64,000 bases of DNA. Origin: Alphaproteobacteria bacterium (GTDB lineage Bacteria > Pseudomonadota > Alphaproteobacteria > SP197). How positions within the stretch are numbered: the first letter of the stretch is position 1; the number at the start of each line of letters is the position of its first letter. The position numbers and the translations under genes are program-made. The notes under the pieces are model-generated. The model was not told the DNA's origin and did no database searches. It saw only the letters and a list, made by a program, of their open reading frames with translations. Below are positions 15,405-34,120 of the stretch, in pieces. Location: contig OZ219747.1 in the NCBI GenBank assembly GCA_964291265.2, positions 2,112,001 through 2,176,000 on the forward strand, read 5' to 3'.

Positions 15405-16271
15405 TCACCGGTTGAGGATGCGTTTCCAGTCCTTGCGGAGAGGCCTCAGCCAGATGTCCTTTTTTGGTTTGTCGAGTTTCCTGTGCGTATCGTAGCGTCC
15501 GCGTCCTTTGGTGGTGCCGACATGGATCCATCCTGACGCCTTGTAGACGGTGCCTGTGTAGCGCGGTGTCTGGACGAAGGTTTCGATGAGGACCGGTGTG
15601 GTGTTGTAGCGTCTGGTCCAGTCATCGGACAGTCGGCGTCGCATGATGGCGAGGATGTGGGACCCAAGGTTGGCGATGGAAATCCAGGACATGATCAAGA
15701 AGCGTGGATTATCGACCACCAGCGGCAGGTTCTTCTGCCGCTGCTCGGGTGTCCATCCGATGAAGGTGTCGCGCGGGGCGATTTTCCAGGCGGCGGTGGA
15801 GAAGCCGAGCATGGCGACGGGCGCTCCGTTGCGATCATGGAAGGCGTAGCGCATCTGGGCTCCGACCAGTCTCGTGTAGCCGAGATAATGGTAGCGGGCG
15901 ACGAACTCGTTCCACAGCTTTCCTTCCCGGGTGCCGCATGTGACGATGGAGACGGCAAGGGGGCGGACCTCGTCGAGGGTTGTGGGAGGCGCGCCGCGTG
16001 GCGGTTCGCTGTCGGGTCCGAAGACGATGGGCTTGGGCCGGACCGGCGGGTGTTTGGGTGGCGGCAGGGTGATGAGGCCGTCGCGGTGCATGGCCAGGAA
16101 GGTGACACTCGCCATCATGTTCTTGAGGCCGCCGTCGGGCTTGTACCAGCCGGTCTCGCGGCAGAAGGCACGGGCGATGGCCGCACGGGTGGGGTGCTGG
16201 GTGATCAGGGAGCGCAACAGCGCCATCTCGTGCGCGGTGAAGTCACGGCCGTAGTAACGGCACTCGATCAC
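15405..16271 (-). CDS. DUF4338 (DruA-like) passenger protein of the IS66
   Basis: WNEFVARYHYLGY, GAQMRY, AAWKIAPRDTFIGW, NPRFLI, IETFV, GTVYKASGW. GTG overlaps the tnpC stop (GTGA). Confidence 0.75.
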   Translation of the reverse strand: MIECRYYGRDFTAHEMALLRSLITQHPTRAAIARAFCRETGWYKPDGGLKNMMASVTFLAMHRDGLITLPPPKHPPVRPKPIVFGPDSEPPRGAPPTTLDEVRPLAVSIVTCGTREGKLWNEFVARYHYLGYTRLVGAQMRYAFHDRNGAPVAMLGFSTAAWKIAPRDTFIGWTPEQRQKNLPLVVDNPRFLIMSWISIANLGSHILAIMRRRLSDDWTRRYNTTPVLIETFVQTPRYTGTVYKASGWIHVGTTKGRGRYDTHRKLDKPKKDIWLRPLRKDWKRILNR

Positions 16272-17099
16272 CCCGGTTCCGTGAGGTCCCGTCGGCGCTC
16301 CGGGCTCATCGACCATGGCAGCCACGGGTCGAGGTCGTCCGGCGGCTTGCCGCCGTTCTGCGCACAGGCATCAAGCCACTCATGAAGCCAGCGCCGAACA
16401 TTGATGTTGTTCATGGCAAGGGTGCCGATGACCGAGTACATGATGGCGGTGAAGGCGGCGCCCTCCTCGCTGTCGGAGCCGAAGTTCAGCTTTCTCGCGG
16501 TCACCGCACCCCGGAGGGTTCTCTCGGCCAGGTTGTTGTCCATGGGCACCTGGGGATGATCGACGAAGACACACAGTCCCTCGCGGTGACGGATCAGGGA
16601 GCGCAAGGGCTTCGCTTCGCGTGCACCCTCGGGCAAGGCGTCGAGTTCCTCCTGTGCCTGCCTGAACAGCGCCTCGACAGCGACACGAAGGGCATCCTGC
16701 AGGGCATCGAACATCGCTGACTGATGCTCCCGTGCGTGCGGGATCGTAGTGCTTCAGCCGTTGCCCATTCAGTGTGTAGATCAGCGCGATCCTGTCGAGC
16801 CACCTGTCGCACCACTCTTCCAGCCCCTCCTGGCCTGCCGCAGCCTCGATCACATCGCGCCTGGAGTGCGTCCAGCAAAAGCAGAGGATCACCTTGCCAT
16901 CGAGCTCGCGCTCAAGTTTCTTGTAGACCGCGTAGCGGTCGCAGACAAGGAAGACGGTGCCTTCGGTGGAGGCGAACAGCACCATGGCCACCCGGGCGTT
17001 GCGTGACGGGTCGATGAGGAAGAAGACGGAGTCGGCGCTGACCGAGTTCCACAGCCAGGCCTTCTGCGAGCGCCCCGAGGCCTTGAGGGACTGGATGCG
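16268..17099 (-). pseudogene. tnpC: IS66 transposase TnpC, 3' part (frameshift near 16730)
   Basis: AWLW, CDRYAVY, CWTHSRR, PMDNNLAERTLR, WLPW motifs. Confidence 0.85.
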
Positions 17100-17349
17100 G
17101 TGTGCCAGGCGAACTGGCGGAAGGTAGGGGGGGAAAGTCCCCTGAAACGAAGGAGTAACCAAACCACGTTTCTCCGCGAGCCGTGCGTCGGTTCCCGCGA
17201 GGGGGCAGGCGAAGCGTCGGTAGCGGTACGGATGGGCAGGGCTAATGAGCACCGAAAAGTCCGTTGTTCGGGGTGCCGAGGCTTTCGCATCGGTCGAAGG
17301 CAACATCGCAGGCATCGATTTGGTGAGATGTCGGCGAGCCCCGCGGTGT
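17100..17349 (+). ncRNA. Group II intron, 5' part of domain I
   Basis: Starts GTGTG. EBS1 CGCATC (17286-17291) is complementary to exon GATGCG (17094-17099). Candidate EBS2 AGTCC (17258-17262) pairs with GGACT (17088-17092). GAAGGCAAC motif. Confidence 0.88.
17340..17349 (+). repeat. Left junction direct repeat CCCGCGGTGT
   Basis: Identical to 30627-30636; joining the two copies restores a continuous intron domain I. Confidence 0.85.
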
Positions 17350-17864
17350 GGCCCACAAGGTCACACCTGAGAGCGATGATCTGACTGACAGACGCCCCAC
17401 CTTCTCCCTCACGAATACCGCACGTTATCAGTGACATGGATGGTCTGTCAATGCCCTCGTGGCGTGGCGCCGCCAACCACATCCAGGCCCGTTTCCAGTG
17501 CATGAAAGTTGCATTTGCGGAAACGACGGCCGAGATACACACACCGTCCAGGCCCCTGCCTGATCGTCGGAACTGCGCGCTTCCAGGCACCACAAGAAAG
17601 CCACATGGAAGCAGCGCCAGACCGGACCTGCCACTTTACACAGGGTAGACCCGTGGTATTCTGGCATCGAAGTGAGCGAGATGACCACGAGAGACTATCC
17701 CATGTGGTGCAGGAGACACAGCCACATCAACGGTCAGTCACAGGCACCACAAGAGCGTCACATGGCATGCCTTGAACCGGGCGCTTCACAACACCATAAG
17801 AACGACATAGCAAGGGCCGCGCCGTGGACCACAGAGACACCATAGGGCCGCCACCGGTCGACAC

Positions 17865-18167
17865 ATGAAGAAGACCACAAAGAAGCAACACACGGTGATG
17901 ATGACCGACAGCGAGTGGCAGGATCTCAGGGAGACCTCTGCCGCTGCCGGCATGACGGTCTCGGCTTTCATCGTCCATCGCCTGGCAGGGTCGGCAGAGG
18001 CTTCCGGAAGCGATCCGCGGATCGATGCGAGGCTCGAGAGGATCGAGCGCTCGGTGCGGATCCTCGAGGAGATCGAACGCCTGCGCCTGAGTGCGGACGG
18101 CGAGACCTGGGACAAGATCAGGGACATCGTGGAGGCACGCATGAAGATCGACCGCAGGCTGGACTGA
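17865..18167 (+). CDS. Ribbon-helix-helix/MobC-like protein 1
   Basis: HTVMMTDSEWQDLRETSAAAGMTVSAFIV; paralog of 47522-47860. Confidence 0.7.
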   Translation: MKKTTKKQHTVMMTDSEWQDLRETSAAAGMTVSAFIVHRLAGSAEASGSDPRIDARLERIERSVRILEEIERLRLSADGETWDKIRDIVEARMKIDRRLD

Positions 18168-18178
18168 AGGAGGTGTCC

Positions 18179-18496
18179 ATGGCAGACGAGGCGCGTCCTC
18201 GGCAACGCAACTACTACTGCACGCCGAGCCAGAACCGGATGATCGAGAAGCGTGCCAAGGAAGCCGGGATGAACCGTTCGAGGTTTCTCGTGGCCTGTGC
18301 GCTCCACGAGGACGCCGGCGGTGGCGAGAAGCTGGTTCTCAACGAAGAAGAACAGCACAGTCTCCTGGATCGGGTGACGTCCTTCCATACGTTCGCGGTG
18401 GCGCTCGGCAGGGAGCTGCCGGATATCGGCATGACGCCGTTGGAGGCGCTGTCGTTCCTCGTCCGTGCGGCGAAGCGGGAAGGGGCGGAACCATGA
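18179..18496 (+). CDS. Ribbon-helix-helix/MobC-like protein 2
   Basis: AGGAGG RBS; YCTPSQNRMIEKRAKEAGMNRSRFLV; paralog of 47232-47525. Confidence 0.7.
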   Translation: MADEARPRQRNYYCTPSQNRMIEKRAKEAGMNRSRFLVACALHEDAGGGEKLVLNEEEQHSLLDRVTSFHTFAVALGRELPDIGMTPLEALSFLVRAAKREGAEP

Positions 18497-18894
18497 GGCG
18501 CCGCGAGCGGGTGACGAAGTACTCGCTGTCGGCGACGGACGAGGAATGGGAACGCATCAAGGCCCGGGCCAGCCGCGCCGGCATGACGGTCTCGGCCTTC
18601 CTTGTGGAGAGTGCCCTTGCCGTCGATCCGGGGCGTCCTGCCATCACCCTTGCGCTGACACACGCTGACCAGCGGGTGTTGCTGATGCTGGTCGAGGACA
18701 TTCATGCCGTGCTTTCCGAGAGTCGATGGGACGACCCGTCGATCCGCGACAAGATCCGCAACAGCACCTCCTTCCTCGCCCGCCAGAAGATGCAGGACAT
18801 GATCCGGGATGGCCGCCGCGAGGACCTGTACGCCATCCTGGCGGCGATGCTCGGTGAGGAGGAGGCAGCGAGGGTCATCAAGGCGCTGACCTGA
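18493..18894 (+). CDS. Ribbon-helix-helix/MobC-like protein 3
   Basis: SLSATDEEWERIKARASRAGMTVSAFLV...MIRDGRREDL; ATGA overlap; paralog of 46759-47241. Confidence 0.7.
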   Translation: MRRRERVTKYSLSATDEEWERIKARASRAGMTVSAFLVESALAVDPGRPAITLALTHADQRVLLMLVEDIHAVLSESRWDDPSIRDKIRNSTSFLARQKMQDMIRDGRREDLYAILAAMLGEEEAARVIKALT

Positions 18895-19183
18895 CGGGCC
18901 GCAAGCCCGGTGGGGTCAGGGGCGTGTCCTGGCGGCGGAGGGCGCTCTGGAGTGGTTCCAGACCAGGTCTCCCGGCTTTCGCGTCGATGACGAGGCGGCG
19001 GATGGCCACGTCTCGCTCGTGGACGCCATCAGGAGTGAGTGGGAATTCGTGGTGGCTGCGGATGGTCCAACACGGGGCGGGGACTACAGGAACAATCCCG
19101 TTCTCATCCGGGAAGATTCTGCACCTCCTCGCCGCCGACACGATGTCGAAGACGGGCGGCGTATCTCGCCGACTGGCTCCTTG

Positions 19184-22100
19184 TCACATGGAGAACCCGC
19201 GGCTCCGGGATCGCGACTGCTCCTGCCTTTGCTCCTCGCGCCGCCGTTCCATCCGCACGCTGTCATCGGGTGGACCATAAGCCTTCCTGATCTCCTCGAA
19301 GGCGGCCATGGCCTCGGCCATGTCACGAGCCGTCGCGCTGCCGTCGGCAAGCACCTCGCCGTAGGCTCCTTCACGCCCGAGAACCCGGCGAGCGTTCCAG
19401 GTCCAGCTCTGGGTCGCATCGTGCCAGTACTTGTATGCTGCGCTCTGGTGGAGAGCGAGACCCTCCTTCCCGGCTTCCGTGGCAAGCGACCGAGCGCGCC
19501 GATGAAAGTGATCGATCTTGCCTGCAAGGCGCCTGACCTCGGCTTTCACCTCATTGCGCCTGTCCTCGTCGTAAGTCTCCTGCCACAGCATCCGGCAGCG
19601 GGGATCGTCCGCCTCGAGTCTGCGGTAGAGCGCCGTCATTTCGGGGATGATGTCCTTCCAGGCCGGCGTCTGTGTGGGATGGACGCCCCGGCGGTCAGCC
19701 TCCTCGGCGTTGTCGTGGAGACGCAACAGCAGCCAGCCCGGAAGGGTGTCGCGTTTGTTTCTCTTCGCGATCATGCGCTCGACGCGGGAGACGAGAGCCC
19801 GGGCGCCCTCGGTCCCGTCGAGGTGGTGTGCGAGGGCGGGACTCTTCAACTCCCCGATCACCGGCGCCAGCGTCTCCGCCTCCTTCCGCCAGCGTTTCCA
19901 TCTCCTGTTCCAGCGTCGATTGAGCGGCCTGTCGCGTGATCCCTCCCGCTCCAGCAGTACCCTGCGGTCGCGGTCGAGGGCGCTCACGGACGCCAGGAGC
20001 GTTTCCACCCGTTCCCGCTCCCGGGCATGGGTGTCGGCCTCCTTGAGAGCCCGGGCGAGCGCCTGGGGAAGCACGGCGTCCTGGGGAGCCTGATCCTTCA
20101 GGCGTCGGATGGCTGCCAGGATCCGGCCGGCATCAGGGTGACCGAAGGCATCGCCGCCGGTCCGCCCCGCGTCATCGGCATGGTGGCGCCAGGTCTCGAC
20201 GAGGGCGTTGGCCTCGGTGTCGAAGGCGACGAGAGCCTCGAGGCGTTCTGCATCCCGCCATGTCGTCGCGCCCGTCGCGCCCGCCGCACCGGCTTTCCAG
20301 TCCGCGATCGCCGATCGGGTCTCCCGGCGCCATGTCTTCCATGCCGCCAGCGACGCGAGCGCCTGGCCCTCGGATGCGTACTGCAGTCGCTGACGCTCCT
20401 GCAGCGCCCGGGCAATTGCCTGTGCCGCCAGGACAGGATCGGGCGCCGGGGGTGGTGGAGTCGCGATCGATGGTGAGGATACCTCAGCGGGTGGCGGCGC
20501 CGGTCTGACGGGCCGCGGCGCCGGCGTTGCCGGCTGACGCGTTGGCGGAGTTGCCGGTGGACCGGGAGCCGGTGCCGGTTCTCGCGTCATCGTCGGCGTC
20601 CGCTCTGGCGCAGGCTTCCGTGCGGAAGGCGGGGAGGCCGCCGGTGCCGGACGCGGAGCGGGCGCCGTCGTCGCCGGCTGGCGCGTTGGCGGATCTACCG
20701 TTGGACCGGGCGCCGGTGCCGGTCCTCGCGTCATCGTCGGCGCCCGTTCCGGTGCAGGCTTCCGTGCGGGAGGCGGGGAGGCCGCCGGTGCCGGACGCGG
20801 AGCGGGCGCCGGCGTTGCCGGCTTGCGCGTTGGCGGAGTTGCCGGTGGAGCGGGCGCCGGCGCCGGTCCTCGCGTCATCTTCGGCGCCCGTTCTGGCGCA
20901 GGCTTCCGTGCGGCAGGCGGGGAGGCCGCCGGTGCCGGACGCGGAGCGGGCGCCGGCGTTGTCGGCTGGCGCGTTGGCGGAGTTGCCGATGGACCGGGCG
21001 CCGGCGCCGGTCCTCGCGTCATCGTCGGCGCCCGTTCTGGCGCAGACTTCCGTGCGGAAGGCGGGGAGGCCGCCGGTGCCGGACGCGGAGCGGGCGCCGT
21101 CGTCGCCGGCTGCGCCTTCTTCACACCCGTCACCGGCCCAGGTTGCGCCTCCTGCTTCTTCCGTTCCGCGCGCCATGCGTCACGGCGTTCCATGAAGTCA
21201 GCAAGGACCCGGGGTAGGGGTTCTCCATCGAGGATTCTCAAAGTCATGTTGTTGATGCAGTCCATCGCCAGAAGAGAGACATCAAGTCCGGCCTGGGGAT
21301 CGCGCGCGGCTGCCCTGGCCTCGGCCTCGTGCGCTTCCAGGCGGGCGACGAGGTCAACTGCACCATCATCCAGGTCGAAGGCCCGGCCAAGCCGAGCTGC
21401 GTCACGATCAGCCACGTCGCTCAGCGCACCATCGCGCCGCTGCCAGGCATCGACTGCGGCTTCGGCTCGCTTCCGCCAGCTGGCATAGGCGGCAAGCGAG
21501 GAAATCAGACGGCCCTCGGCCTCGGCAACCAGCGCCCGGCGTTCCTCGATCGCGGCAGCAAGACCTTCGACGACATCGTCACCTGATATGTGGTCGCCTG
21601 CAGGGGTCTCTGCCGGCGCCTCGGCGGCATCGTGATCCGTGGCGGGCATCTGCGGGGCCTCTCCGGATTGCGGCCTCTCCGCATGCGCCACGGCAAGCAA
21701 CTCCTCCTCGCTGAACAGAAGATCCAAGGCATCGGTGCCCGTTGTCGTCTCGTAACGGCGGACAAGGTCGTCCAGATCCCAGGGCAGTCTGGCGTAAGGC
21801 GGCGCTTCGCTGCCAACCAGGACCACATGCTGCACCAGTTCTCTGGCATCCGGGCTCAGGAGAGAATCCTCGTCGGGTTCTCCTTCCTTCGCGACATGAC
21901 GCCGGAGCTTCTCCACGAGTTCCAGAACATCGTTGTCGAAGGCAAGCAGGCCTTGCAGGGTCTCTGCTGTCTCCGTCCAGTCGATACGGCCTGCCACCTC
22001 GCCACCGATGTCGAGAGCGGCCGTCGTTCTCTCCTTCCATGCCGCATACCCGTCCATGCCGGAAAGGGGTGCGCCGTCAGCCGCGTCCTCGAGGCGAAGG

Positions 22101-24982
22101 CGTTCCTCGAGACACCGGTCGAGGTGGGGTTCAAGGGCGCGAAGCTCCTCCAGTCCCTTGGTCCGTCCGCGGACATCCTGCAGAGCGTCGTCGGAGAGAA
22201 CGGGCTTGGGGAGAACGTCGACCCGTGTTTCCCCTTCTTCCCGGAATTGTCCGCCGATCGCCTCGAGAGCGGAGAGTTCATCTCCCGTCGCCGTCTCGAG
22301 AGCCTCCACCAGAGCATCCCGGTCGTCGGTCAGCAGCACCGCGTTGTCGCGGGCCCGCGTCAGTTCGACGTAGAACGCCGCCTGGCCCGTGATGGCGCCC
22401 TGGTTCGCATCGAGGACAGCGATCACCTGATCGCAGGTCATCCCCTGGGCCGCATGAACCGTCGAGGTCCATGCATGATCGATGAAGTGCAGATGGGGGT
22501 CATCATGAGCCAGGGTCAGTGTGCGGCCGTCGGCGGCCTGAAGCCACAGGCTGCTCTTGCCGATCGAGAGGACCCGCGCCTCCTCGCCGTTGAGAAGACC
22601 GCGTTCCTTGTCGTTGCGGGTCCAGCGGATCCTCTCCCCGGCCTGGAGTTCGATTGGTTCCGTCTCGAAGAGATCGACCCGGTAGCGCAGGTACTTCGAC
22701 GGATCGGCCCGGCGGGTCTTCCCGTCCGGATGCCTGAGCAGGACCTTCTCTCCTTGCGATCCGATGACGCCGAAGATGTCGCCCGACTTCGCCTGGACAC
22801 CGTAGACATCCGCATGGAAGACGGCGATGTCGCCCTCGCGCCAGTTGTCGAGATCCCCTTTCTGGGCCCGGGTGAGGTGGAGATTGACGTAGCGCTCGAT
22901 CTCGAGTGTGCGCCCGTGGAGGTTCCCCTCGGCCTTGAGGCCATCGCGGATGCCCTGCGTGATCTCCCGGCGCCGGGCATGGGTCGGGGCCAGGACCTTC
23001 GTGGCCTTACGCGATTCCCGGTCGAGATCAAGCCACAGGGCCGCGGCCCGTGGTCCGAGTTCGTCCGCGTCCATCTCCAGGACGCCGGGGCCGAGTTCCT
23101 CGATGGCGAGATCCGGCTTGCCCTCGATCATGTGGAGCACCGCGGCCTTCAGGCTCTCGTTGCGCTGCCGCAGGACCTCGTCCATCACCGCCGTCTCCAT
23201 GCCGGCCTTCTGCAGCACCCGGAACGGCTGACCGGCCTCGACCGAGCGCAGCTGCGCCCGATCGCCCACCAGGGCAACCCGGGCGATGCCCGTCGCCTCG
23301 GCGATGCGGCTGAGACCGTGCATCTGCGCCATGCTGATGAGCGACGCCTCGTCCACCACGAGAAGGGTTCCTTCCAGGGCCTCGCGAGCTCGTGCCAGGG
23401 ATTGGATGTCGGCGCAGCCGTCGCCGACATCCCGGTAGCGGGTGAGGAACCACTGCAGCGTCTTCGTGCCGATCCCGGTCTCCCGCTGCAGCGTGCGGGC
23501 CGCACTGCTCGAGGGCGCCAGGGCGACGATCCTGTCGGCCCCGGCCAGTTCGACGACCTGCTTCAACATGGTCGTTTTCCCGGTGCCCGCATGCCCCTGA
23601 ACACCGCAGACATGACGGGAGGACAGCAGCAGGGTGTTGACGGCGGCCTTCTGGCCGTCGTTGAGCGCACCGGCCGCAAGGTGGCGCTCGATGTGGTCGG
23701 CATCGATGGCGAACCGCTCGGGGGCATCACTCTCCTGCTTCATCCAGCGAAGCACCGCGCGTTCGGCCTTCACGGCCCGGTCCGTGACGAAGGCGCAGTC
23801 GGAACGTGCCGCCGTCGCCTCGATGAGGTGACCTTCCCGTCGCAGCCGGCCGATCGCCGCATCGACCTCCTTGAGGGTCCAACGGCCCGGCGCCAGGACG
23901 AGGGCCCGCAGCATGTCGGCCGTGAAGACCGTGCGCCGCTCCTCGATGTGCTCGACCGCCCGGCGGACGGCGTGGAGCGCCGAGGGAGACTGCCGGTTGG
24001 CAACTCCCCGGCGCGCAAGGTGCCAGCGCTCGCGGTCGAGGCGTGTGTGGGATGCCGGGCGGTTGCGGGAGATGTGGCGGTTGCGGGGAGCGCACTCCGC
24101 CATGCGGGCCTTCCAGATGTTGGCGAGTTCCTCGCGCGACGGCTCGTCCTTGCGCTTGCGGGTATAGAGAACCGCCTGTTGCATCACGGCGGCCGACTGC
24201 TCGTCCAGGTTACGCTCCCGGGCCCACGCCACGGCCTGCGCCCGGCGGGTCGAGAAGGCCTCCAGCGTCGCCTTGTCGTAGCCGGCAATCTCGAAACCGG
24301 GCACGCTACCCACCATGGTCTGTTCGGTGGCGTAGCCCAGGGCCTCGATGCGCCGCCTCAACTCCGCCCGGTAGTGAGCGCCGATCAGCAGCTTCGCGCG
24401 CTCGATCCTGATGAAGTCGGCGCTGCGCCACTCGCCATCCGGGTTCCGGGTCATGTTGGCGACAACGCTATGGGTATGAAGCTGCGGGTCGAGGTTGCGG
24501 CTGGCGTAATGGCGGAAGGTCGCCGCCACAAGGCCGTCGGCCTTGATGCGCGGGCGCTTGCGGGTGGCGGGGTCCCATCCCCGGGTCTCCAGCAGCTCCC
24601 TCTCGATGAAGTCAAGTGTCGCGGTCACTGCCTCGTCATGCGCTCGGATGATCCGGGCTGCCGCCTTCGGCGCCGCGTGCACCAGGGCCTCCAGAGAGAC
24701 CGACTTCGGAGCCGAGAAGGTGATGTCGAGGCCCGGACGGTGCTCGTGCCGACCCTTGCGCAGGCGGCCCAGCCGGGTCTTCGTGCCAGGAATGCGCCCG
24801 GAGAGGACTTCCTCGAAGCGCTTCGGCTTGACGGGACCGTGAAGGCCCAGGGCCTCCACGCCCCTGCCATGCCAACGGCTCGCCTTGCGGTGCTCGAGGT
24901 CGTTCTTCGCGTAATATCCATCCACCTCGAAGTAATGGACCGTCGAGGCAGCTTCAGTGAGGCGGGTAACCGTGGCAACCAT
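19184..24982 (-). CDS. MOBF (TrwC-like) relaxase-helicase, 1932 aa, long C-terminal extension
   Basis: YFEVDGYY, DITFSAPKSVS, DPQLHTH (HUH), GHAGTGKTT, VVDEAS, TVHAAQG, YVELTRAR; tail RSRSRGFSM. Confidence 0.9.
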   Translation of the reverse strand: MVATVTRLTEAASTVHYFEVDGYYAKNDLEHRKASRWHGRGVEALGLHGPVKPKRFEEVLSGRIPGTKTRLGRLRKGRHEHRPGLDITFSAPKSVSLEALVHAAPKAAARIIRAHDEAVTATLDFIERELLETRGWDPATRKRPRIKADGLVAATFRHYASRNLDPQLHTHSVVANMTRNPDGEWRSADFIRIERAKLLIGAHYRAELRRRIEALGYATEQTMVGSVPGFEIAGYDKATLEAFSTRRAQAVAWARERNLDEQSAAVMQQAVLYTRKRKDEPSREELANIWKARMAECAPRNRHISRNRPASHTRLDRERWHLARRGVANRQSPSALHAVRRAVEHIEERRTVFTADMLRALVLAPGRWTLKEVDAAIGRLRREGHLIEATAARSDCAFVTDRAVKAERAVLRWMKQESDAPERFAIDADHIERHLAAGALNDGQKAAVNTLLLSSRHVCGVQGHAGTGKTTMLKQVVELAGADRIVALAPSSSAARTLQRETGIGTKTLQWFLTRYRDVGDGCADIQSLARAREALEGTLLVVDEASLISMAQMHGLSRIAEATGIARVALVGDRAQLRSVEAGQPFRVLQKAGMETAVMDEVLRQRNESLKAAVLHMIEGKPDLAIEELGPGVLEMDADELGPRAAALWLDLDRESRKATKVLAPTHARRREITQGIRDGLKAEGNLHGRTLEIERYVNLHLTRAQKGDLDNWREGDIAVFHADVYGVQAKSGDIFGVIGSQGEKVLLRHPDGKTRRADPSKYLRYRVDLFETEPIELQAGERIRWTRNDKERGLLNGEEARVLSIGKSSLWLQAADGRTLTLAHDDPHLHFIDHAWTSTVHAAQGMTCDQVIAVLDANQGAITGQAAFYVELTRARDNAVLLTDDRDALVEALETATGDELSALEAIGGQFREEGETRVDVLPKPVLSDDALQDVRGRTKGLEELRALEPHLDRCLEERLRLEDAADGAPLSGMDGYAAWKERTTAALDIGGEVAGRIDWTETAETLQGLLAFDNDVLELVEKLRRHVAKEGEPDEDSLLSPDARELVQHVVLVGSEAPPYARLPWDLDDLVRRYETTTGTDALDLLFSEEELLAVAHAERPQSGEAPQMPATDHDAAEAPAETPAGDHISGDDVVEGLAAAIEERRALVAEAEGRLISSLAAYASWRKRAEAAVDAWQRRDGALSDVADRDAARLGRAFDLDDGAVDLVARLEAHEAEARAAARDPQAGLDVSLLAMDCINNMTLRILDGEPLPRVLADFMERRDAWRAERKKQEAQPGPVTGVKKAQPATTAPAPRPAPAASPPSARKSAPERAPTMTRGPAPAPGPSATPPTRQPTTPAPAPRPAPAASPPAARKPAPERAPKMTRGPAPAPAPPATPPTRKPATPAPAPRPAPAASPPPARKPAPERAPTMTRGPAPAPGPTVDPPTRQPATTAPAPRPAPAASPPSARKPAPERTPTMTREPAPAPGPPATPPTRQPATPAPRPVRPAPPPAEVSSPSIATPPPPAPDPVLAAQAIARALQERQRLQYASEGQALASLAAWKTWRRETRSAIADWKAGAAGATGATTWRDAERLEALVAFDTEANALVETWRHHADDAGRTGGDAFGHPDAGRILAAIRRLKDQAPQDAVLPQALARALKEADTHARERERVETLLASVSALDRDRRVLLEREGSRDRPLNRRWNRRWKRWRKEAETLAPVIGELKSPALAHHLDGTEGARALVSRVERMIAKRNKRDTLPGWLLLRLHDNAEEADRRGVHPTQTPAWKDIIPEMTALYRRLEADDPRCRMLWQETYDEDRRNEVKAEVRRLAGKIDHFHRRARSLATEAGKEGLALHQSAAYKYWHDATQSWTWNARRVLGREGAYGEVLADGSATARDMAEAMAAFEEIRKAYGPPDDSVRMERRREEQRQEQSRSRSRGFSM
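20516..21112 (-). repeat. In-frame tandem repeat, 4 x 144 bp (48 aa, Pro/Ala-rich) plus a partial unit
   Basis: Unit QPATTAPAPRPAPAASPPSARKPAPERAPTMTRGPAPAPGPPATPPTR; full units span 20537-21112. Confidence 0.9.
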
Positions 24983-25181
24983 GCAAGCTTATCCCCGAGC
25001 GATCGCAATAGAATTGCACAAGGCGTTCACCACACCGCTAGTTGCGACACTGACACCATATGAGTAGACTAATCTAACGAACTGAGCAAGTGGACTAAGC
25101 TTCCTGGCACTCCACGAAATGCAACGTTTTGCAACGCAGAAGTATAGACAAAGACACATTCCACAGTGGGGCGAGATCGCA

Positions 25182-26105
25182 ATGTCAGTGGAAATTCATT
25201 TTGGTGACTGTCTGGCTGTAACACCTGACTTCGAAACGGGATCGTTCAGCCTTGTATACATAGACCCTCCCTTCAACACGGGCCGAAAGCAAAAACGCAG
25301 ACAACTGAAGACGGTGCGAGACAACAACGGTGATAGAACGGGATTTCAAGGAAAGCGATACACAACACGCTGTCTTGGTGAATCATCATTTCACGACTCA
25401 TTCGATGACTACATGGGATTTCTGAAACCGCGCTTGATAGAGGCGAAACGCCTCTTGTCATCGACAGGCTCATTCTTCTTGCACATTGATTACCGGGAGT
25501 CTCATTATTGCAAGGTGTTCTTGGACACCGTTTTCGGACGCGAGTCGTTCATCAACGAGATCGTGTGGGCTTATGATTACGGTGCCAGATCGAAACGCCG
25601 ATGGTCTGCAAAACATGATACGATTTTGTGGTATGCTGTGAACCCGAAGGAGTACACCTATAGATATGAGGACATTGACCGCATCCCATATATGGCCCCA
25701 AATTTGGTAACGCCGGAGAAGGCCGCTCGCGGCAAGACGCCCACGGATGTTTGGTGGCAAACCATAGTCAGTCCAAATGGCAAAGAGAAAACGGGGTATT
25801 CAACACAAAAGCCCATTGCCATTCTGAATCGAATTATAAAGGTGCATAGTAACCCAGGAGACCGTGTTCTTGATTTCTTCGCGGGAAGTGGAACGACCGG
25901 TGAGGCGGCAGTTCGTAATGGTAGAAACGTGGTGTTGGTTGACAACAGTACAGAGGCGATTCGTGTTATGCGCCGGCGACTTGCGTTTGCAGAGCCGATC
26001 ATTCAGGGAGAAATGAAGGATGACGACAATTCAAGACCCGGAGGTCGGAATTCTAGCGACCTACTCGAAAGTACTGCAGTCGGACTACAAGGCCCCGGAC
26101 GATGA
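25182..26105 (+). CDS. Beta-class N6/N4 DNA methyltransferase
   Basis: YIDPPF precedes TQKP and LDFFAGSGTTG; lower GC. Confidence 0.88.
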   Translation: MSVEIHFGDCLAVTPDFETGSFSLVYIDPPFNTGRKQKRRQLKTVRDNNGDRTGFQGKRYTTRCLGESSFHDSFDDYMGFLKPRLIEAKRLLSSTGSFFLHIDYRESHYCKVFLDTVFGRESFINEIVWAYDYGARSKRRWSAKHDTILWYAVNPKEYTYRYEDIDRIPYMAPNLVTPEKAARGKTPTDVWWQTIVSPNGKEKTGYSTQKPIAILNRIIKVHSNPGDRVLDFFAGSGTTGEAAVRNGRNVVLVDNSTEAIRVMRRRLAFAEPIIQGEMKDDDNSRPGGRNSSDLLESTAVGLQGPGR

Positions 26106-26586
26106 CCTATGGAACGGAAGCCCCTTCAACTGGATTCGATCCAGACCATCGAGACAGAAAGGTGCAATTGGTGAGAAGTTGATTGCTGGCTATCTAGCTT
26201 GTAAGGGGCTCGATGTCACTCGTTCGCCTGATGCTGAGGCAGATCGAATCATTGGCGGGAAACGAGCTGAAATAAAGATGAGCACTCTTTGGAAAAACGG
26301 TTCATACAAGTTTCAACAACTGCGCGATCAGAATTATGAGTTCGCGATTTGCCTGGGTATCAGTCCTTATGACGCTCATTGTTGGGTCATACCAAAGACA
26401 GAAATTACTAGCAAGCGGCATTCTATGGCGATCCCGTCTCAGCACGGCGGAAGAGTGGGAAGCGATACGGCATGGCTAACTGTCGATCCCCACGCAGTGC
26501 CCGACTGGTTGACAAAATGGGGCGGACGACTGTCAGATGCCGTGAGATTGATTACCAAGATTACCGAGCAAGAGCCGCTGAAGTGA
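26020..26586 (+). CDS. Putative Type II restriction endonuclease (PD-(D/E)xK-like)
   Basis: KGAIGE...ADR...EIKMS...FQQLRDQ; overlaps the MTase 3' end; same low-GC block. Confidence 0.6.
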   Translation: MTTIQDPEVGILATYSKVLQSDYKAPDDDLWNGSPFNWIRSRPSRQKGAIGEKLIAGYLACKGLDVTRSPDAEADRIIGGKRAEIKMSTLWKNGSYKFQQLRDQNYEFAICLGISPYDAHCWVIPKTEITSKRHSMAIPSQHGGRVGSDTAWLTVDPHAVPDWLTKWGGRLSDAVRLITKITEQEPLK

Positions 26587-26605
26587 ACAAGCGGGTGCGC
26601 CAGGC

Positions 26606-27303
26606 TAAGGAGTCACGCCAAAATAGGTGATTTTTTTGTGTGGATCGGTTGTCCATGGTGTCATGGCAGCGACGGTTGATACGCTGCGATCCAGATTTGT
26701 GGTGTTGCGTCCGTTTCTGAACGAACGTGCGCGGCGCCTGTGGGCGGCGACGGAGGCCCGTGCCATCGGGCGCTCAAGGTATTGAGCGAGTGGCCGAGGC
26801 GACGGGGATGTCGCGTAGCACCGTTCGCGCCGGGCTGAAGGAGCTCGGATCGGACGCGGTCTCGGGGTCTTCGAGTGAGATTCCTTCAGGGCGTTTGCGT
26901 CGCCCCGGCGGCGGGCGCAAGCGGGTGACGGATGTGGATCCGGGTTTGGTGGCGGCGCTGGAGCGCGAGCTTGAACCGATGACGCGCGGCGATTCGGAGA
27001 GTCCGCTGCGCTGGACGTGTCACAGTGCCGCACGGCTGGCGGCCCGCCTTGCGGTCGAGGGTCACCGCGTCAGCGAGCGCACGGTGAACCGGCTACTCCA
27101 CGATCTGGGGTACAGCCTTCAGGCCAATCGCAAGACGCTGGAAGGCCGCCAGCATCCGGATCGGGATGCGCAGTTCCGACGCATTGACCGCCGGGTGCGC
27201 GCGTTCCAGAGGCTGGGCCAGCCTGTGGTGTCGGTCGACACCAAGAAGAAGGAAATCGTTGGCCAGTACCGCAATGGCGGCCGGGAATGGCGCCTCAAGG
27301 GCA
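26606..27303 (+). mobile_element. ISAzo13-family remnant (left end plus frameshifted, truncated transposase)
   Basis: End TAAGGAGTCACGCCAAAATA; LNERARRLWAA, RRPGGGRK, TRGDSESPLRWT, GYSLQANRKT, SVDTKKKE. Confidence 0.8.
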
Positions 27304-27611
27304 ACCCTGGTGTGGCATGGGCGGGCTGGAGCGGTAGGGAGGGTGTCATAACGAGCCAAAAATGGAACATGCGATATTAGATGCATTTATCGCCACATGT
27401 CAAGTGGAATCCGCGCTGAAACAGGCAGAAACACAGGAAAACCATGGATTTCCTGATCGGTGCGATATGCCCCTCAAAAGAGCAGGTCAGGATGTCTGAA
27501 GCTTGCTCCTCCGATGGCAGGTGGGATTACTCTACTTGGCCATGAGGCCTATTGTCTACATGTGGTGATTTCCCGGGGGTTTCCCAGGCAGATTCCAGGA
27601 AAATCGTGCCG

Positions 27612-27640
27612 TTGACACCGTTTCGTCAAGTCCTTACCAT
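27612..27640 (+). promoter_or_regulatory. Sigma70-like promoter with overlapping palindromic operator
   Basis: TTGACA-N17-TACCAT; TTGAC-N8-GTCAA inverted repeat over the -35. Confidence 0.5.
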
Positions 27641-27673
27641 ATTGGCCCGGAACGGAACATCAGAGGACGAGAG

Positions 27674-28165
27674 ATGAGATGTCTTGCACTCGCGGTCGTG
27701 GCGATGGTCGCGGCTCCGGCGGTTGCCGAAGAGGTGAGCGATCGAGCTCGTTTCAACCTATGGAACGATTGCGGAGTTGTAGATCTGGTAGTCGAGACAC
27801 CGTATGGTGACGCTGAAGCGATTGGTCTTCGCAAAGCGGACATTGAAACAACAGTGCGGAGCCGTCTGCGCGGCGCTCGCATTTATAATAGTGGAACCGA
27901 AGACACAGACATGTATCTTTATGTGCACATCAGCGTGGTCAGTTCCGCCTTTAGCCTCACTGTAGAACTTAAGAGGTTGGTTGCCCTGCCCCATTGGTCG
28001 ATCCCGGAAGGGGTGGCCCCGCTCATAGGTTACGCCTCAACGTGGATTGCAGGCAGCACCGGAATGCATGGCGGTGATCCGAATTTCCTCCTATCGGGTG
28101 CGGCTCAATACACAGACAAGTTCATCGATGAATATCTGCGCGTGAATGCCGCTGCGTGCCAGTAG
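27674..28165 (+). CDS. Hypothetical exported protein
   Basis: Signal peptide MRCLALAVVAMVAAPAVA; GAGGA upstream; promoter present. Confidence 0.7.
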   Translation: MRCLALAVVAMVAAPAVAEEVSDRARFNLWNDCGVVDLVVETPYGDAEAIGLRKADIETTVRSRLRGARIYNSGTEDTDMYLYVHISVVSSAFSLTVELKRLVALPHWSIPEGVAPLIGYASTWIAGSTGMHGGDPNFLLSGAAQYTDKFIDEYLRVNAAACQ

Positions 28166-28218
28166 TCATGTCGTTTTGCTCGAAAGTCGAAGTGGAACAC
28201 TATCCCCGGTCCATGTGT

Positions 28219-28247
28219 CTTGACGGGCCCGAAGTTATCCCGTCAAG
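28219..28247. terminator. Hairpin between convergent genes
   Basis: CTTGACGGG-N11-CCCGTCAAG, perfect 9-bp stem, no U tract. Confidence 0.35.
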
Positions 28248-29382
28248 CGGTGGATGACATCCCGAGCAACCCTGAAATCAGCCCGCCAACCCGCTCGGCG
28301 GCGGCTTCGGTTTCACGATCGCCCGTGTGGGCGTAGCGCAGGGTCATGGTCGTCTGCGCGTGACCGAGGAGCCTTGCGACGACGGGAAGCGGCGCTCCCT
28401 GCATGACGGCATGGCTGGCGAATGTATGGCGCAGATCATGGAGCCTGACATCCTCGATGCCGGCCTCCCTGCGGACGACGTACCACAGTGGGAGGTCGTC
28501 GTTGAGCGGCCGTCCGGGATCGCGGGGGGACGGGAAGACGAATGCGCTGTCGCTGGGAAGACGGCGCTCGATGATGGCCCGGGCCGGAGCATTCAGGACG
28601 ACCGTGCGCGGGCCGACCTTACTGTTCTGGAGTCGGAGATTGTTGCCGAGCACCTCCCGCTTCTGCAGGCGGACGATCTCGTTCTTGCGGCACCCGGTGA
28701 GCATGAGAAGCCGGATGATGTCGATCTGCATTCGCCGTGATCGACTGATCCCCTGGAGATTGTCGTGGCGGTCCAGCACGCCATGCAGCCGATGAAGTTC
28801 CTCGCGCGAGAGGAAGCGGGTGAGTTTCCTGCGCGGGTTGGGTTTCACCGACCTTGCCGGGTTCGCTGTGATGTGGCCGCAGGCCATGGCGTGATTGAGG
28901 ATGTGTCGAAGGACCTTCAGGCAGGAATTGGCGCCGCCGGGCGCCGTTCTGCTGTAGTCGTCGAACCAGCGGTGCACCATGGCGGGCGTGATCCGGTCCA
29001 GGCATCGGGAACCGAATGTCGGCAGCAGGCGGGCTTGAAGGCACCTGTCGCGCCACTGGATCGTCCCGGGCTTGCACCGATGGATCCAGGAGTCGCGCCA
29101 TGCGCCGACAGCAAAGTCCCTGAACAACGGGGCCGAAGCCCTGTCGTCGTGACCGGCTGCCAGTCTTTCGAGGCTCTCCTTGCGGGCCACTTTGACCGTC
29201 TTGAAGGCGACCGGACCAAGCGATGTCCTTCTTCCGCCGTCGATGTGAACGAAGCCGCGGCCTCCCGACGGGTGGACCCGAACCCCGAGAGAGGGAACGA
29301 AGGTATCGCGAAGCGTGTACTCCCGGGATCGCGGCTTGAGGTTGTGCACGAGGGTATCCGTCAGCTTCTTCCTGCGGTTCAT
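28243..29382 (-). CDS. Tyrosine recombinase/integrase 2
   Basis: Arm-binding-like N-term; TGCRKNE, RLHDLRHTFAS, LLGH, TLRY. Confidence 0.9.
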   Translation of the reverse strand: MNRRKKLTDTLVHNLKPRSREYTLRDTFVPSLGVRVHPSGGRGFVHIDGGRRTSLGPVAFKTVKVARKESLERLAAGHDDRASAPLFRDFAVGAWRDSWIHRCKPGTIQWRDRCLQARLLPTFGSRCLDRITPAMVHRWFDDYSRTAPGGANSCLKVLRHILNHAMACGHITANPARSVKPNPRRKLTRFLSREELHRLHGVLDRHDNLQGISRSRRMQIDIIRLLMLTGCRKNEIVRLQKREVLGNNLRLQNSKVGPRTVVLNAPARAIIERRLPSDSAFVFPSPRDPGRPLNDDLPLWYVVRREAGIEDVRLHDLRHTFASHAVMQGAPLPVVARLLGHAQTTMTLRYAHTGDRETEAAAERVGGLISGLLGMSSTA

Positions 29383-30506
29383 GCGTCAGTCCTTCCGAGA
29401 ACGGAGCCCACGGCCTCTGCCGCTTCAGCCATCATGCCGTCGGCGAGATGCGTGTACTTGAGAGTGGTCGCGGGATCGTTGTGACCGAGCAGTCGACCGA
29501 CGGTGAGAATGTTCTCTCCGTGCATGACGGCAAGGGAGGCGTAGGTGTGACGCAGGTCGTGAAGGCGCACATCCTCCAGGCGCGCTTCGGAGCGCACACG
29601 CATCCAGAAGTATCCGATGGCGCCTTGCGAGATGGACCTGGCGGTGGTCCTTGGCGATGGAAACATCCAAGGCGAACGACGAGGCAACGTCTTCAGGACC
29701 TTACGGGCGGGAGCCGACAGCCAGACCATGCGTGGCCCCGTCTTGGAATCTGCGAGATGGAGATGACCCTCGCGGTAATCCGCCCAGCGCAGCGACAGGA
29801 TCTCCTGGCTTCGGCACCCGGTGAGGAGCAGGAGGCGGATGATCGCCACCTGTGCCGGGAAGTGCGCTTCATGGTCCTGCAGCACGCGCCCGAGCCGGCG
29901 GACCTCCTCCACGCAGCAGAAGCGCTCCCGTCCCTGCCGTCGATAGCGCCTGATGCCCCGGCACGGATTGCTGCCTTCAGGCCGGTATCCGTAGTCCTCG
30001 GCACGGGCCATGATGACCGAGAGAACCGGAGCCGACCGGTCGGCTGCGACCGGCGTCGCGTGCAGGGAGGCGAACCACTCCTGAACATCGCCGCGCACGA
30101 TCTCCGCGATCTGGCGTCCACGGAACCACGGCAGGATATGGTTGCGGTAGTAGCCCCGGTTGACCGTGAGCGTACTGGGCTTCCATGTGCGCCCGTACCG
30201 GCGAAAGACCTCCTCGGCAACCGTCTCGAACAGGGTCTCGTGCGATGAAGCGGGAGCGCCGCTTCTGATGGCGGCGAGCATGGCCTGTGCGCGTTGTCTG
30301 GCCTCGGCGAGACCGATCCCGGCAGCGTCACCGACGATCTTCCAGATCCTCTGCCCATCATGCTGGGTATGGATGAAGTAGCGCTTGCGCCCCGATGGGT
30401 AGACACGGATGCCGAATCCCCTGAGATGGGCGTCACGGATGTCCCGGGCAGTTCTGCGAGGACGCAGGGCCTTGATGCGGCTCTCGGTGAGATGTGTTGC
30501 GGCCAT
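29379..30506 (-). CDS. Tyrosine recombinase/integrase 1
   Basis: Arm-binding-like N-term; TGCRSQE, RLHDLRHTYAS, LLGH, TLKY; stop overlaps the start of integrase 2. Confidence 0.9.
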   Translation of the reverse strand: MAATHLTESRIKALRPRRTARDIRDAHLRGFGIRVYPSGRKRYFIHTQHDGQRIWKIVGDAAGIGLAEARQRAQAMLAAIRSGAPASSHETLFETVAEEVFRRYGRTWKPSTLTVNRGYYRNHILPWFRGRQIAEIVRGDVQEWFASLHATPVAADRSAPVLSVIMARAEDYGYRPEGSNPCRGIRRYRRQGRERFCCVEEVRRLGRVLQDHEAHFPAQVAIIRLLLLTGCRSQEILSLRWADYREGHLHLADSKTGPRMVWLSAPARKVLKTLPRRSPWMFPSPRTTARSISQGAIGYFWMRVRSEARLEDVRLHDLRHTYASLAVMHGENILTVGRLLGHNDPATTLKYTHLADGMMAEAAEAVGSVLGRTDA

Positions 30507-30611
30507 GGAGTCTCCCTCGAATGCGAGTTGCAGGAGCGGGAGATTCCGCTCGCGAAATCGCCTGCAGTTGCAGAAACGAGAGAGAAAATACGGCGTTAGT
30601 TCAGTTGTTTA

Positions 30612-30636
30612 GCACCACAGGTGCGTCCCGCGGTGT
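30612..30636 (+). other. Right junction: oriT-like hairpin plus direct repeat CCCGCGGTGT (30627-30636)
   Basis: GCACC-ACA-GGTGC-GT-CCCGCGGTGT; hairpin arms match the R388 oriT hairpin as recalled. Confidence 0.5.
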
Positions 30637-32305
30637 CGGAGAACCCATGCACGTCCGCACGCCTTCTGTTGGGACCCTGGGAGGTCTTCGAACTATCCCG
30701 CCTGTCGTGGCGGGACCGTGTAGGGAAAGGAGAAAGCCGAAGCCTATGAGGAACGGTTTGAAGAAGTCGGATGGGGCCGTAAGACCGGTGAAGGCGGCGA
30801 ACAAGGGAGCGTCAGCTTCTGCGGAGTCGCTGGAGGAAAGGGCCTCAACCAAGGGGAATCCGGGACGCCAAAGCACGCACCGAACGCAGTGTCGGGCAAG
30901 TGTGCCACAGGCGGCGGACCGGATACGGGAAGCTGCAGAGAGGAACCCGAAGGAGCGTCTCACTGCACTCTTCCATCACATTACGCCGGACGCGCTCCGG
31001 GCGGCCTACTTCGGTTTGAAGAAGGAAGCCTCGGCAGGTGTCGACGGCGTGACGTGGGCGGCGTATGGCGAGGGTCTGGACGAGCGCTTGCTTGATCTGC
31101 ACTCGCGCCTGCATCGTGGGGGAGCGTACCGGGCGCCGCCGGTTCGGCGGGTTGAGATACCCAAGCCGGACGGCGGGACACGACCGCTCGGGATTGCCGC
31201 ACTGGAGGACAAGATCGTCCAGAAGGCGGTTGTGGATGTGATCCTGACACCGATTTATGAGGTGGAGTTCCTTGGCTTCAGCTACGGGTTCCGACCGGGC
31301 CGAGGGGCGCATGACGCTCTCGACGCCCTGGCGTTCGGGATCGAGCGGCGCAAGGTCAACTGGATAGTCGACGCGGACATTCAGGGGTACTTCGACACAA
31401 TCCCGAGGGATTGGTTGATCAAGTTCCTGGAGCATCGCATTGGCGACAGGCGGGTGATCCGTCTGATCCGCAAGTGGCTGAACGCTGGCGTCATGACCGA
31501 CGGATCATGGAGCGACACCGGTGCGGGCACGCCTCAGGGCGCCATTGTCAGCCCCTGCCTGGCGAACGTGTTTCTGCACTACGTGCTCGATCTGTGGTTT
31601 CACAAGGCATGGCGTCCGAAGGTTCCGAACGGTAAAGCGATCATTGTCCGCTACGCGGACGATATTGTGGTCGGGTTCCAGCATAAGCGGGATGCGGAGA
31701 CATACCTTCGCGACGTTCGGGAGAGGCTGGACCGCTTTGGTCTCACCCTTCACCCGGACAAGACCCGTCTCGTTGAGTTTGGACGGTTTGCCAAGGCGAA
31801 CCGGCGATCTCGCGGGGCGGGCAGGCCGGAGACGTTCGACTTCCTGGGCTTCACGCACTTCTGCACGGAGACCCGGAGAGGACGCTTCAGGCTTGGTCGC
31901 AAGCCGGTCGCAAAACGGGTCGCAAGGACCCTGGCGCGCATCGAGGAGGTGCTTCGCAATCGACGGCATCACGACATATGGGAGGTCGGCATGTGGCTTG
32001 GGCGAGTTGTCAATGGCTGGTCCAACTACTTCGCCGTTCCGGGGTCGACCCGATGGCTGCGCACGTTCCGCCAAAGGCTGCAACGCCTATGGCTGCGAGC
32101 GATCCGCCGCCGCTCCCAGCGCCACTGCTTTGACTGGAAGCGATTGGAGCGCATGACCGAGCTTCTTTGGCCGCGCGTCTCCATCCGCCACCCATGGCCG
32201 GACCAGCGGTTTACCGTCAAGCACCCGAGGTAGGAGCCGGATGGATTAACGTCCATGTCCGGATCTGTGCGGGGGGTGCGCAGCAATGCGCATCCCTACC
32301 GCGAC
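30637..32305 (+). ncRNA. Group II intron, 3' part (rest of DI to DVI; class E-like)
   Basis: DV GAGCCGGATG...TCCGGATCTGTGCGGGGGG; DVI ends CCCTACCGCGAC at 32305; flanking exons rejoin in frame. Confidence 0.9.
30746..32233 (+). CDS. ltrA: Group II intron reverse transcriptase/maturase, no endonuclease domain
   Basis: IPKPDGGTRPLGI, SYGFRPGRGAHDAL, GTPQG, RYADD, FDFLGF; ends HPWP..RF. Start uncertain (alternative GTG 30902). Confidence 0.92.
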   Translation: MRNGLKKSDGAVRPVKAANKGASASAESLEERASTKGNPGRQSTHRTQCRASVPQAADRIREAAERNPKERLTALFHHITPDALRAAYFGLKKEASAGVDGVTWAAYGEGLDERLLDLHSRLHRGGAYRAPPVRRVEIPKPDGGTRPLGIAALEDKIVQKAVVDVILTPIYEVEFLGFSYGFRPGRGAHDALDALAFGIERRKVNWIVDADIQGYFDTIPRDWLIKFLEHRIGDRRVIRLIRKWLNAGVMTDGSWSDTGAGTPQGAIVSPCLANVFLHYVLDLWFHKAWRPKVPNGKAIIVRYADDIVVGFQHKRDAETYLRDVRERLDRFGLTLHPDKTRLVEFGRFAKANRRSRGAGRPETFDFLGFTHFCTETRRGRFRLGRKPVAKRVARTLARIEEVLRNRRHHDIWEVGMWLGRVVNGWSNYFAVPGSTRWLRTFRQRLQRLWLRAIRRRSQRHCFDWKRLERMTELLWPRVSIRHPWPDQRFTVKHPR

Positions 32306-32390
32306 CCAGCTGGTCTCGTCGCCGTGGCGCACCGTCATCTGGTTCTGATGATCGAGGATGGCCTGAGCGAGAAGCGCGAACATCGGTTTC
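32306..32390 (-). pseudogene. tnpC: IS66 TnpC, upstream piece
   Basis: Reads LKPMFALLAQAILDHQNQMTVRHGDETSW and continues in frame at 17099 as RIQSLKASGRSQKAWLW. Confidence 0.85.
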
Positions 32391-33511: not shown

Positions 33512-34120
33512 ATGGTGGCGACGGTTCACGAGCTTGCGTCCTCGGCGACCGCGGTTTCGTACTACGAGCAGGACGGGTACTACGCCCGCAACGATCCCGA
33601 GCACCGCAAGGCGAGCTTCTGGCATGGCCGTGCGGCGGGCGACCTTGGGTTGAGGGGCCACGTTGTGCCGTCGCGCTTCGAGTCGGTGCTGCAGGGCAAG
33701 GTGCCGAAGACGGACATCCGTCTGGGGAGGATCGTCGAGGGAGAGCGCCAGCACCGTCCGGGCTGGGACATCACGTTCTCGGCGCCGAAGTCGGTGTCTC
33801 TGGAAGCGCTGGTGATGGGGGACGTGCGTGTCATCCGGGCGCACGACGAGGCGGTTCGGGCGACCCTGGACTGGATCGAGCGGGACCTCTTGCAGACCCG
33901 GGGCTGGGATCCGGCGACGAAGCGCCGGCCGCGGGTGAAGGCGGACGGCATGGTGGTGGCGGGCTTTCGCCATCTCACAAGCCGTGATCTCGATCCCCAG
34001 CTTCACACGCACTGCGTTCTGGCGAACATGACGCGCTCGTCCGACGGCGCCTGGAAGAGCATCGAGCCGACATCCTTGCGGCGCAGCGAGAAGCTGATCG
34101 GAGCGCACTACCGCAACGAA
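33512..34120 (+). pseudogene. MOBF relaxase 2, N-terminal 203 codons (interrupted by IS21)
   Basis: YYEQDGYY, DITFSAPKSVS, DPQLHTH; HYRNE continues as LASRL at 39447. Confidence 0.9.

Follow-up and report, generated by a model that had tools for sequence, protein, structure and literature searches.

A two-integrase island splits a group II intron, probably as an opportunistic lodger at an amplified site

Does a mobile island that lies inside a ribozyme seek out ribozymes, or did it merely find one there? The question is raised by a 64,000-nt stretch of an Alphaproteobacteria bacterium genome (assembly GCA_964291265.2, contig OZ219747.1, positions 2,112,001 to 2,176,000; hereafter, the window), in which a group II intron is divided into two halves by an inserted element, here called e1. 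A preliminary description of this sequence had proposed that the element uses a conserved intron RNA sequence as its attachment (att) site, so that it parasitizes a retroelement, and that its precise excision would switch the intron back on. Our analysis bears out the split itself and points to another reading of its origin: e1 is probably a two-integrase island that landed opportunistically at a site fitting its current attachment sequence, which the intron happens to supply in many copies.

The decamer CCCGCGGTGT is present twice, at the end of the intron's 5′ half (17340-17349, plus strand; CCCGC-GGTGT, the left copy of the att core) and directly before the 3′ half (30627-30636). Between the halves lie 13,287 bp (17350-30636), which comprise e1 and the right core copy. 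Rejoining the 5′ half (17100-17349, plus strand; nt 1-250, within domain I) to the 3′ half (30637-32305, plus strand; the rest of domain I to domain VI) yields an intron of 1919 nt that starts with GTGTGC at 17100 and ends with ACCGCGAC at 32305, an AC terminus. Over all 1919 nt this rejoined sequence agrees 100% with an intact copy elsewhere in the genome (G000:C2:1144144-1146062), and the empty site for the 10-bp direct repeat is found in intact intron copies. The genome holds 11 full-length copies; the ten others are 99.7-99.95% identical to the rejoined intron, two more copies match from nt 8, and about 15 copies of roughly 660 nt each lack the open reading frame (ORF). The covariance-model check supported the assignment, since with Rfam RF02005 (group-II-D1D4-6) the split 5′ half reached 150.5 bits and the intact copy 169.7 bits. 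Domains V-VI gave a full-length match to RF00029 at 32232-32305, whose 34.7 bits (E 1.5e-4) fall short of the gathering score, 40. The reverse transcriptase (RT)/maturase is intact (30746-32233, plus strand, 495 aa) and passed TIGR04416 with 356 bits against a cut-off of 300.

The intron sits, in antisense orientation, in a copy of the insertion sequence IS66. Its 5′ exon side carries the 3′ part of the IS66 transposase (16268-17099, minus strand), frameshifted into two pieces that match PF03050 in two frames, and its 3′ side an 81-nt remnant of the IS66 5′ part, ending in HGDETSW (32306-32386, minus strand). Translation of the joined exons restores the frame HGDETSW/RIQSLK, and IS66 copies without the intron exist in the genome, so the intron had inserted precisely. 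The host copy itself is dead: only about 27 codons remain 5′ of the intron, and beyond them comes a frameshift. Exon-binding site 1 (EBS1; CGCATC, 17286-17291, plus strand) lies in a hairpin loop of the Rfam alignment and is the exact reverse complement, 6 of 6, of intron-binding site 1 (IBS1; GATGCG, 17094-17099, plus strand), an exon end shared by most full-length copies. The duplicated sequence, the rejoined intron with its RT, the restored IS66 frame and the EBS1-IBS1 pairing, all proposed in the preliminary description, are thus borne out.

Where the break falls was taken from the Rfam alignment, which places the att decamer in domain I as the 3′ strand of the helix closing the EBS1-bearing region. 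Two nucleotides past the break, the full copies have a G and a 3′ exon beginning with C, whereas the ORF-less copies have an A and a 3′ exon beginning with T. Because this base covaries with the first 3′-exon base, the G at 30638 (plus strand) is likely EBS3. The insertion places 13.3 kb between EBS1 and the likely EBS3 with all that lies 3′ of it, and the split copy is therefore likely silent; exact excision would restore it. Precise excision of e1 would yield the sequence of an intact intron, as the preliminary description held. The switch role it attached to this is unlikely to matter, because 11-13 intact copies are present and the host gene is dead.

Judged by its gene content, e1 has the anatomy of an integrative mobilizable element (IME). 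Behind its left end (17350-17390, plus strand), resembled by orphan ends at G000:C2:2569304 and C2:275598, neither of them in an intron, follow three small NikA/MobA-like mobilisation proteins (17865-18894, plus strand; PF21983, weak NF041264) and a MobF (TrwC-type) relaxase-helicase of 1932 aa (19184-24982, minus strand; PF08751, AAA_30, NF041492 above cut-off, YY and helix-turn-helix motifs). The cargo is a type II methyltransferase and restriction enzyme of 50% GC (25119-26586, plus strand; PADLOC MTase_II 9e-134, REase_II 2e-53), followed by an ISAzo13-family transposase fragment (26727-27380, plus strand; PF07592) and a 163-aa ORF without a Pfam, NCBIfam or PADLOC match (27674-28165, plus strand). 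No type IV secretion or mating-pore family was found among the scanned ORFs of the insert. Two tyrosine recombinases occupy one end of the element: IntB (28243-29382, minus strand, 379 aa; PF00589, R-K-HxxR-H-Y intact) and IntA (29379-30506, minus strand, 375 aa), which overlaps the IntB start by 4 nt. The two are 36.6% identical (E 6e-57) with catalytic motifs intact in both; IntA carries the Arm-DNA-bind_3 domain (PF13356, 39 bits) beside the catalytic domain, and IntB has no PF13356 match. The element closes with a right-end motif, GCACC-nnn-GGTGCG, then T and the core CCCGC-GGTGT (30612-30636, plus strand). Within the relaxase gene, positions 20480-21200 hold proline/alanine-rich repeats with a period of about 140 nt.

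That the intron site was used more than once is evident from a second element in the same genome. This element, e2 (16,731 bp), splits another intron copy at the same base (C2:936304/953036), and its integrases are 96% and 94% identical to those of e1. Over a compared length of 2346 nt, the integrase modules of e1 and e2 carry 82 differences, which extend as close as 45 nt to the core, yet the two introns have identical 3′ halves; the left ends and cargo differ, and the relaxases are 66-69% alike. The IS66 flank of e2 matches that of e1 at 569/596 positions, compared with 576-584/600 for eight other copies. On these comparisons, the simplest reading would be that e1 and e2 are two insertions. 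If only GGTGT mattered, the chance of two intron hits would be about 2e-5; with a second, differing element at the same base, repeated use of the intron site is not a matter of chance. The decamer is the att core, used twice independently in this genome, and to this extent the attachment-site claim stands; specialisation on a conserved intron RNA sequence does not.

Other members of the same sub-lineage lie elsewhere. The integrase pair of e3 is 96% identical, and its right end reads CCCGT-GGTGT, outside introns; the gene just before this end is one we take, from its sequence, to encode urocanate hydratase. We also recovered contigs from three coded runs of one study (X1, X2 and X3, with 6, 4 and 13 contigs). 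Run X1 shows the e3 junction. In run X2, a 2285-nt contig (depth 29.6) joins a near-identical right end to the exact decamer in non-intron DNA, and a second junction, CCGTG-GGTGA, is likewise outside introns, with an empty site in this genome at C2:895796; one X2 flank has no match in the genome. Run X3 has no e1 cargo and contributes a 467-nt contig that runs from IntA to the equivalent of position 30656, entering the intron 3′ half by 20 nt. It carries 16 differences from e1; the counts for e2 and e3 are 25 and 23. We dropped the idea that the e3 right end belongs with the orphan left end at C2:2569304 to a single split element, since the cores differ and the flanks look like different genes.

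How far the family extends was assessed with IntA. Within the genus, 11 of 22 other genomes had relatives, and the 18 more distant genomes of that sample had none; relatives were also present in 2 of 400 other class-wide genomes (E <= 1e-110, four candidates scored per genome) and at 26 metagenome loci; at least 2511 protein clusters reached E <= 1e-100 among 8000 scored, and single genomes had up to 17 matches. Plasmid relatives were all below 42% identical, and a PDB search returned only distant Xer/integrase folds. One relative, P0109, has 654 aa and is possibly a fusion or read-through of an IntA/IntB pair. In the literature within reach, neither the paired family nor any tyrosine-recombinase element lying within domain I of an intron turned up, most subscription papers being beyond that reach.

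The junctions of these relatives bear on the question of targeting. We collected 84 distinct right junctions with the end motif GCAC(C/T)-nnn-RGTGCG, a short spacer and then G(T/C)GT; the pattern itself demanded G(T/C)GT, whose constancy is thus partly built in, and did not require its fixed distance. Thirteen integrases were dropped because no motif or core was recognised by the pattern, and none of them had an intron flank (by eye or blastn). The junctions take the form N5-GGTGT, where the five bases N5 vary: 71 different N5 and 75 flank clusters occur among the 84. G stands at -5 in 69, and base preference is absent beyond +1. Only two match an intron, both in this genome (blastn and a profile from 12 intron sequences), and 0 of the other 82 do. 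The preliminary description had expected that homologous elements at unrelated sites would refute targeting and had suggested looking for integrase pairs at the same intron position in other genomes; the former abound, and the latter were not found among these junctions.

Direct repeats give the same picture of a short site with changeable N5. Among the nine right ends in this genome, six have their own 10-11-bp repeat 13-52 kb away, and three of those have left ends 90-93% alike, yet N5 of GCTAT, CGGTA and AGGAT. Of 40 loci of relatives (up to 20 kb), 38 had the motif and five showed a 10-11-bp repeat, compared with a decoy rate of 75/3320 (2.3%); one locus, L181, has a spacing of 10,450 bp. 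Below 90% IntA identity, N5 agreement between members is near random (1.35-1.57 of 5). Within the e1/e2/e3 sub-lineage, by contrast, N5 is nearly constant as far as its junction sequences indicate: CCCGC in e1, e2, the X2 non-intron junction and X3; CCCGT in e3 and X1; and CCGTG in the other X2 junction.

This near-constant N5 matters in view of what the genome offers. Exact decamers number 43, of which 31 are intron-borne, or 29 of 41 if each att pair is counted once. The exact-decamer junctions found in the intron, 2 of 2 or 3 of 4, are what that share predicts. Because the intron supplies 29 of the 41 exact sites, it is likely the main landing pad of the e1/e2/e3 lineage, and the intron's own spread built these pads. 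Beyond this genome, 21 of 25 intron places in relatives were retrieved; out of 11 related introns, five carry the exact decamer and the six more distant ones lack it. The five intact introns with an exact decamer are unoccupied, in genomes with 17, 17 and 3 IntA matches. A junction pattern of element end plus intron gave 0 matches in metagenome_contigs and, among 23 genus genomes, only this one; with the element-end pattern, over 5 of the 64 parts of genome_contigs, 16 of the 122 loci listed had an integrase hit, and none matched the intron or its RT. On the sequences compared, dedicated intron targeting is not supported.

We therefore regard it as probable that e1 is a two-integrase relaxase island that landed opportunistically at an N5-GGTGT site matching its own N5. 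On this reading, the present key of the lodger happens to suit an intron that has been amplified, and the island does not belong to a family evolved for introns. Mechanistically, GGTGT would act as a binding half-site and N5 as the strand-exchange overlap, which would usually have to match and would be carried by the circle to the next target. IntA and IntB would excise the element as a circle, the MobF relaxase would transfer it with the aid of a helper conjugation system, and occasional mismatched events would reset N5. For tyrosine integrases, the accessible part of a study of phage mv4 describes overlap identity between partners, not overlap composition, as setting specificity (10.1101/2023.11.06.565760).

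Several observations weigh against this reading or loosen its parts. The overlap role of N5 is deduced from junctions, not from cut sites. The apparent memory of N5 rests on few, related cases, because at 90% IntA identity or above there are only six different-site pairs, three of which share 4 of 5 N5 bases, two of those three involving e3; a Fisher test of N5 sharing was rejected, as it had counted two same-site pairs. The decamer junction in X2 is tied to the e1 cargo by depth only (29.6 vs 25-32), and a third X2 branch may be absent from the contigs (depth 210.8 vs 153.3). The X3 contig hints at a third intron insertion, its 20 nt of intron being short of the 31-nt rule applied. No 10-bp repeat lay in the range searched for three of the nine right ends of this genome and for 33 of the 38 relatives' loci, and the search for left ends of e3, p1730 and p3800 came up empty. 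Neither a circle junction nor an excision product appeared in the contigs of the three runs, contigs being a form of data that drops rare forms. Finally, 6 of 36 intron-derived copies are altered at the att site, by two insertions, two exact 5-bp deletions and two fragments breaking at GGTGT.

The 5-bp deletions lie in intron copies of different variants (G000:C2:1375269 and 2663622), each without exactly 5 nt at the att core; scars of imprecise excision are one possible origin and slippage another. The two fragments breaking at GGTGT were not counted as recombinase products, since they share microhomology with other repeats. Elsewhere in the family, one sub-lineage lies at the same gene site (CCACTGGTGT-type) in several genus genomes (loci L004, L005, L006, L008, L010, L017, L018 and L192). 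It is either site-specific or an old inherited insertion, and site fidelity is therefore possible in the family.

These alterations and the fixed gene site would suit dedicated or emerging targeting, in which the sub-lineage reads more than the decamer and prefers domain I as a safe, self-multiplying pad, other sites being secondary. So would two independent insertions at one base and an X3 contig that is unlike e1, e2 and e3 and still ends inside the intron. We nevertheless hold such targeting to be rather unlikely: the right junctions outside this genome's two all miss the intron, e3 and two X2 junctions lie outside introns, the nearest relatives, at 80-81%, sit elsewhere, the decamer-bearing introns of genomes with IntA matches stand empty, and the junction patterns recur neither in metagenome_contigs nor in any genus genome except this one. 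A bolder version of opportunistic landing can also be told, and we offer it tentatively, as a possibility on the doubtful side: an IME lineage captured by a retroelement, whose N5 key met domain I of an amplifying intron, so that retrohoming provided it with more and more landing pads; by now the lineage would reside chiefly within intron ribozymes, where it disrupts copies just before EBS3 and leaves 5-bp scars. If true, such a capture would be a hyperparasite in the making, within an undescribed two-integrase family retargetable by five bases.

Repeated use of the site would say nothing about preference if e1 and e2 derived from one event, copied along with IS66 and remodelled by recombination with family members. 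The two split introns do share a homing site, each in an IS66 copy, repeats abound in the genome, and the e2 integrase module is closer to that of the neighbouring e3 (53 differences) than to that of e1. A single insertion is still improbable, for e1 and e2 differ at both ends, in the relaxase and in the cargo, against 99.2-100% identity of the intron halves, and the IS66 flank of e2 is closer to eight copies with intact introns than to that of e1. Less probable again is a functional role for the split, through excision on demand or assembly of the two halves as RNA. Both halves and the RT are undamaged, and the Ll.LtrB intron fragmented in domain I can trans-splice, according to the available portion of one report (PMC1874635); recent age, however, explains the absence of decay, the intact copies make the split one redundant, the IS66 that hosts it, antisense to the intron, is truncated and frameshifted, and nothing promoter-like came up ahead of the 3′ half in a consensus scan. 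Mis-assembly among the repeated copies of the intron, for which some 35 intron-family copies in the assembly provide an opening, we consider negligible, given that the junctions carry the family end motif and core repeat just as members at unique sites do, that there are two distinct inserts, and that run X1 shows the e3 junction again and X3 hints at an element-intron junction.

The surroundings of e1 add further layers. A 52-kb member of this two-integrase family (G000:C2:2108126-2160230) encloses the whole locus; it has the repeat GCTATGGTGT and an empty look-alike site at C2:2194720, and positions 1-48230 of the window belong to it, its integrase end being just outside. This makes five nested layers. 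In the enclosing element the relaxase is split into two parts (33512-34126 and 39342-46721), separated by IS21 genes and a Toprim ORF. A DUF4338 (DruA-like) gene (15405-16325) stands directly behind IS66, an arrangement seen in many copies, and a gene for an AlbA_2 protein lies nearby (12029-13423). Another family member, of 13.9 kb (G000:C2:1751349-1765290), splits a D12-type methyltransferase gene, and a similar gene is cargo of e2.

The intron has a varied life of its own. A second intron-like element, starting with G(G/T)GTGTGCTGGG, has entered at least four copies of this intron near nt 396, a twintron-like arrangement (G000:C2:1375420-1376264, or L270, and 2243026, 1430693 and 1339360), and appears as a loose end in run X2 as well. 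The ORF-less 660-nt derivatives (G000:C2:857514-858173, or L271, and about 14 more) have an altered EBS1 loop and EBS3 and a different homing site, and were likely moved by the RT in trans.

For the intron itself, the switch role carries little weight, as excision would restore one of about a dozen copies in a dead IS66. The wider interest lies in the island: a mobile element can turn into another's chief target although no specificity has evolved, here through a multicopy intron that makes up about 70% of the sites fitting the key. The family combines a very short N5-GGTGT site with a changeable overlap, restriction-modification cargo and the disruption of genes. If the overlap rule is true, IntA/IntB would be a candidate retargetable integration tool.

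Comparison with known systems sets the locus in context. Bacterial RF02005-type introns homing into IS66 share with this one the GTGTG start, the EBS1/IBS1 pairing, the RT-maturase and domains V-VI, as well as many near-identical copies in insertion sequences and ORF-less derivatives; what differs here is that integrative elements have broken two copies within domain I. As for the island, the phage mv4 integrase resembles IntA/IntB, in the part of the study available, in its degenerate core-binding sites and in a target set by identity of the attP and attB overlaps, which for our family is a proposal; it is a single integrase with a 7-bp overlap and one tRNA target, characterised in vitro, whereas the variable part here would be 5-6 bp (10.1101/2023.11.06.565760). 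Closer in layout are MTnPi1-3 of Prevotella intermedia (PMC4755523, PMC5704250), which, as the accessible descriptions have it, share the tandem integrase duo, a relaxase, short cores (11-bp there), low site specificity, several copies per genome and accessory cargo. By those same descriptions, their integrases are mutually non-homologous and their targets AT-rich, unlike the 37% identical paralogues, MobF relaxase and N5-GGTGT sites found here. The IntSXT/P4-type integrases with DUF4102 have the PF13356 and catalytic domains of IntA and are, in the portion of the source at hand, single integrases beside conserved genes (tRNA, guaA, prfC), in contrast to paired integrases at scattered N5-GGTGT sites, often inside genes (PMC8138268). 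Finally, IMEs residing in other mobile elements, such as IME_oriT in the oriT of ICEs (integrative and conjugative elements) and serine-integrase IMEs in genes of Tn5252-type ICEs, are likewise nested in conserved sequence of another element, with more than one per genome; within what the available text of that review covers, those elements are specific across many strains, whereas here 2 of 84 junctions lie in the intron and the lineage uses other sites too (PMC5704250).

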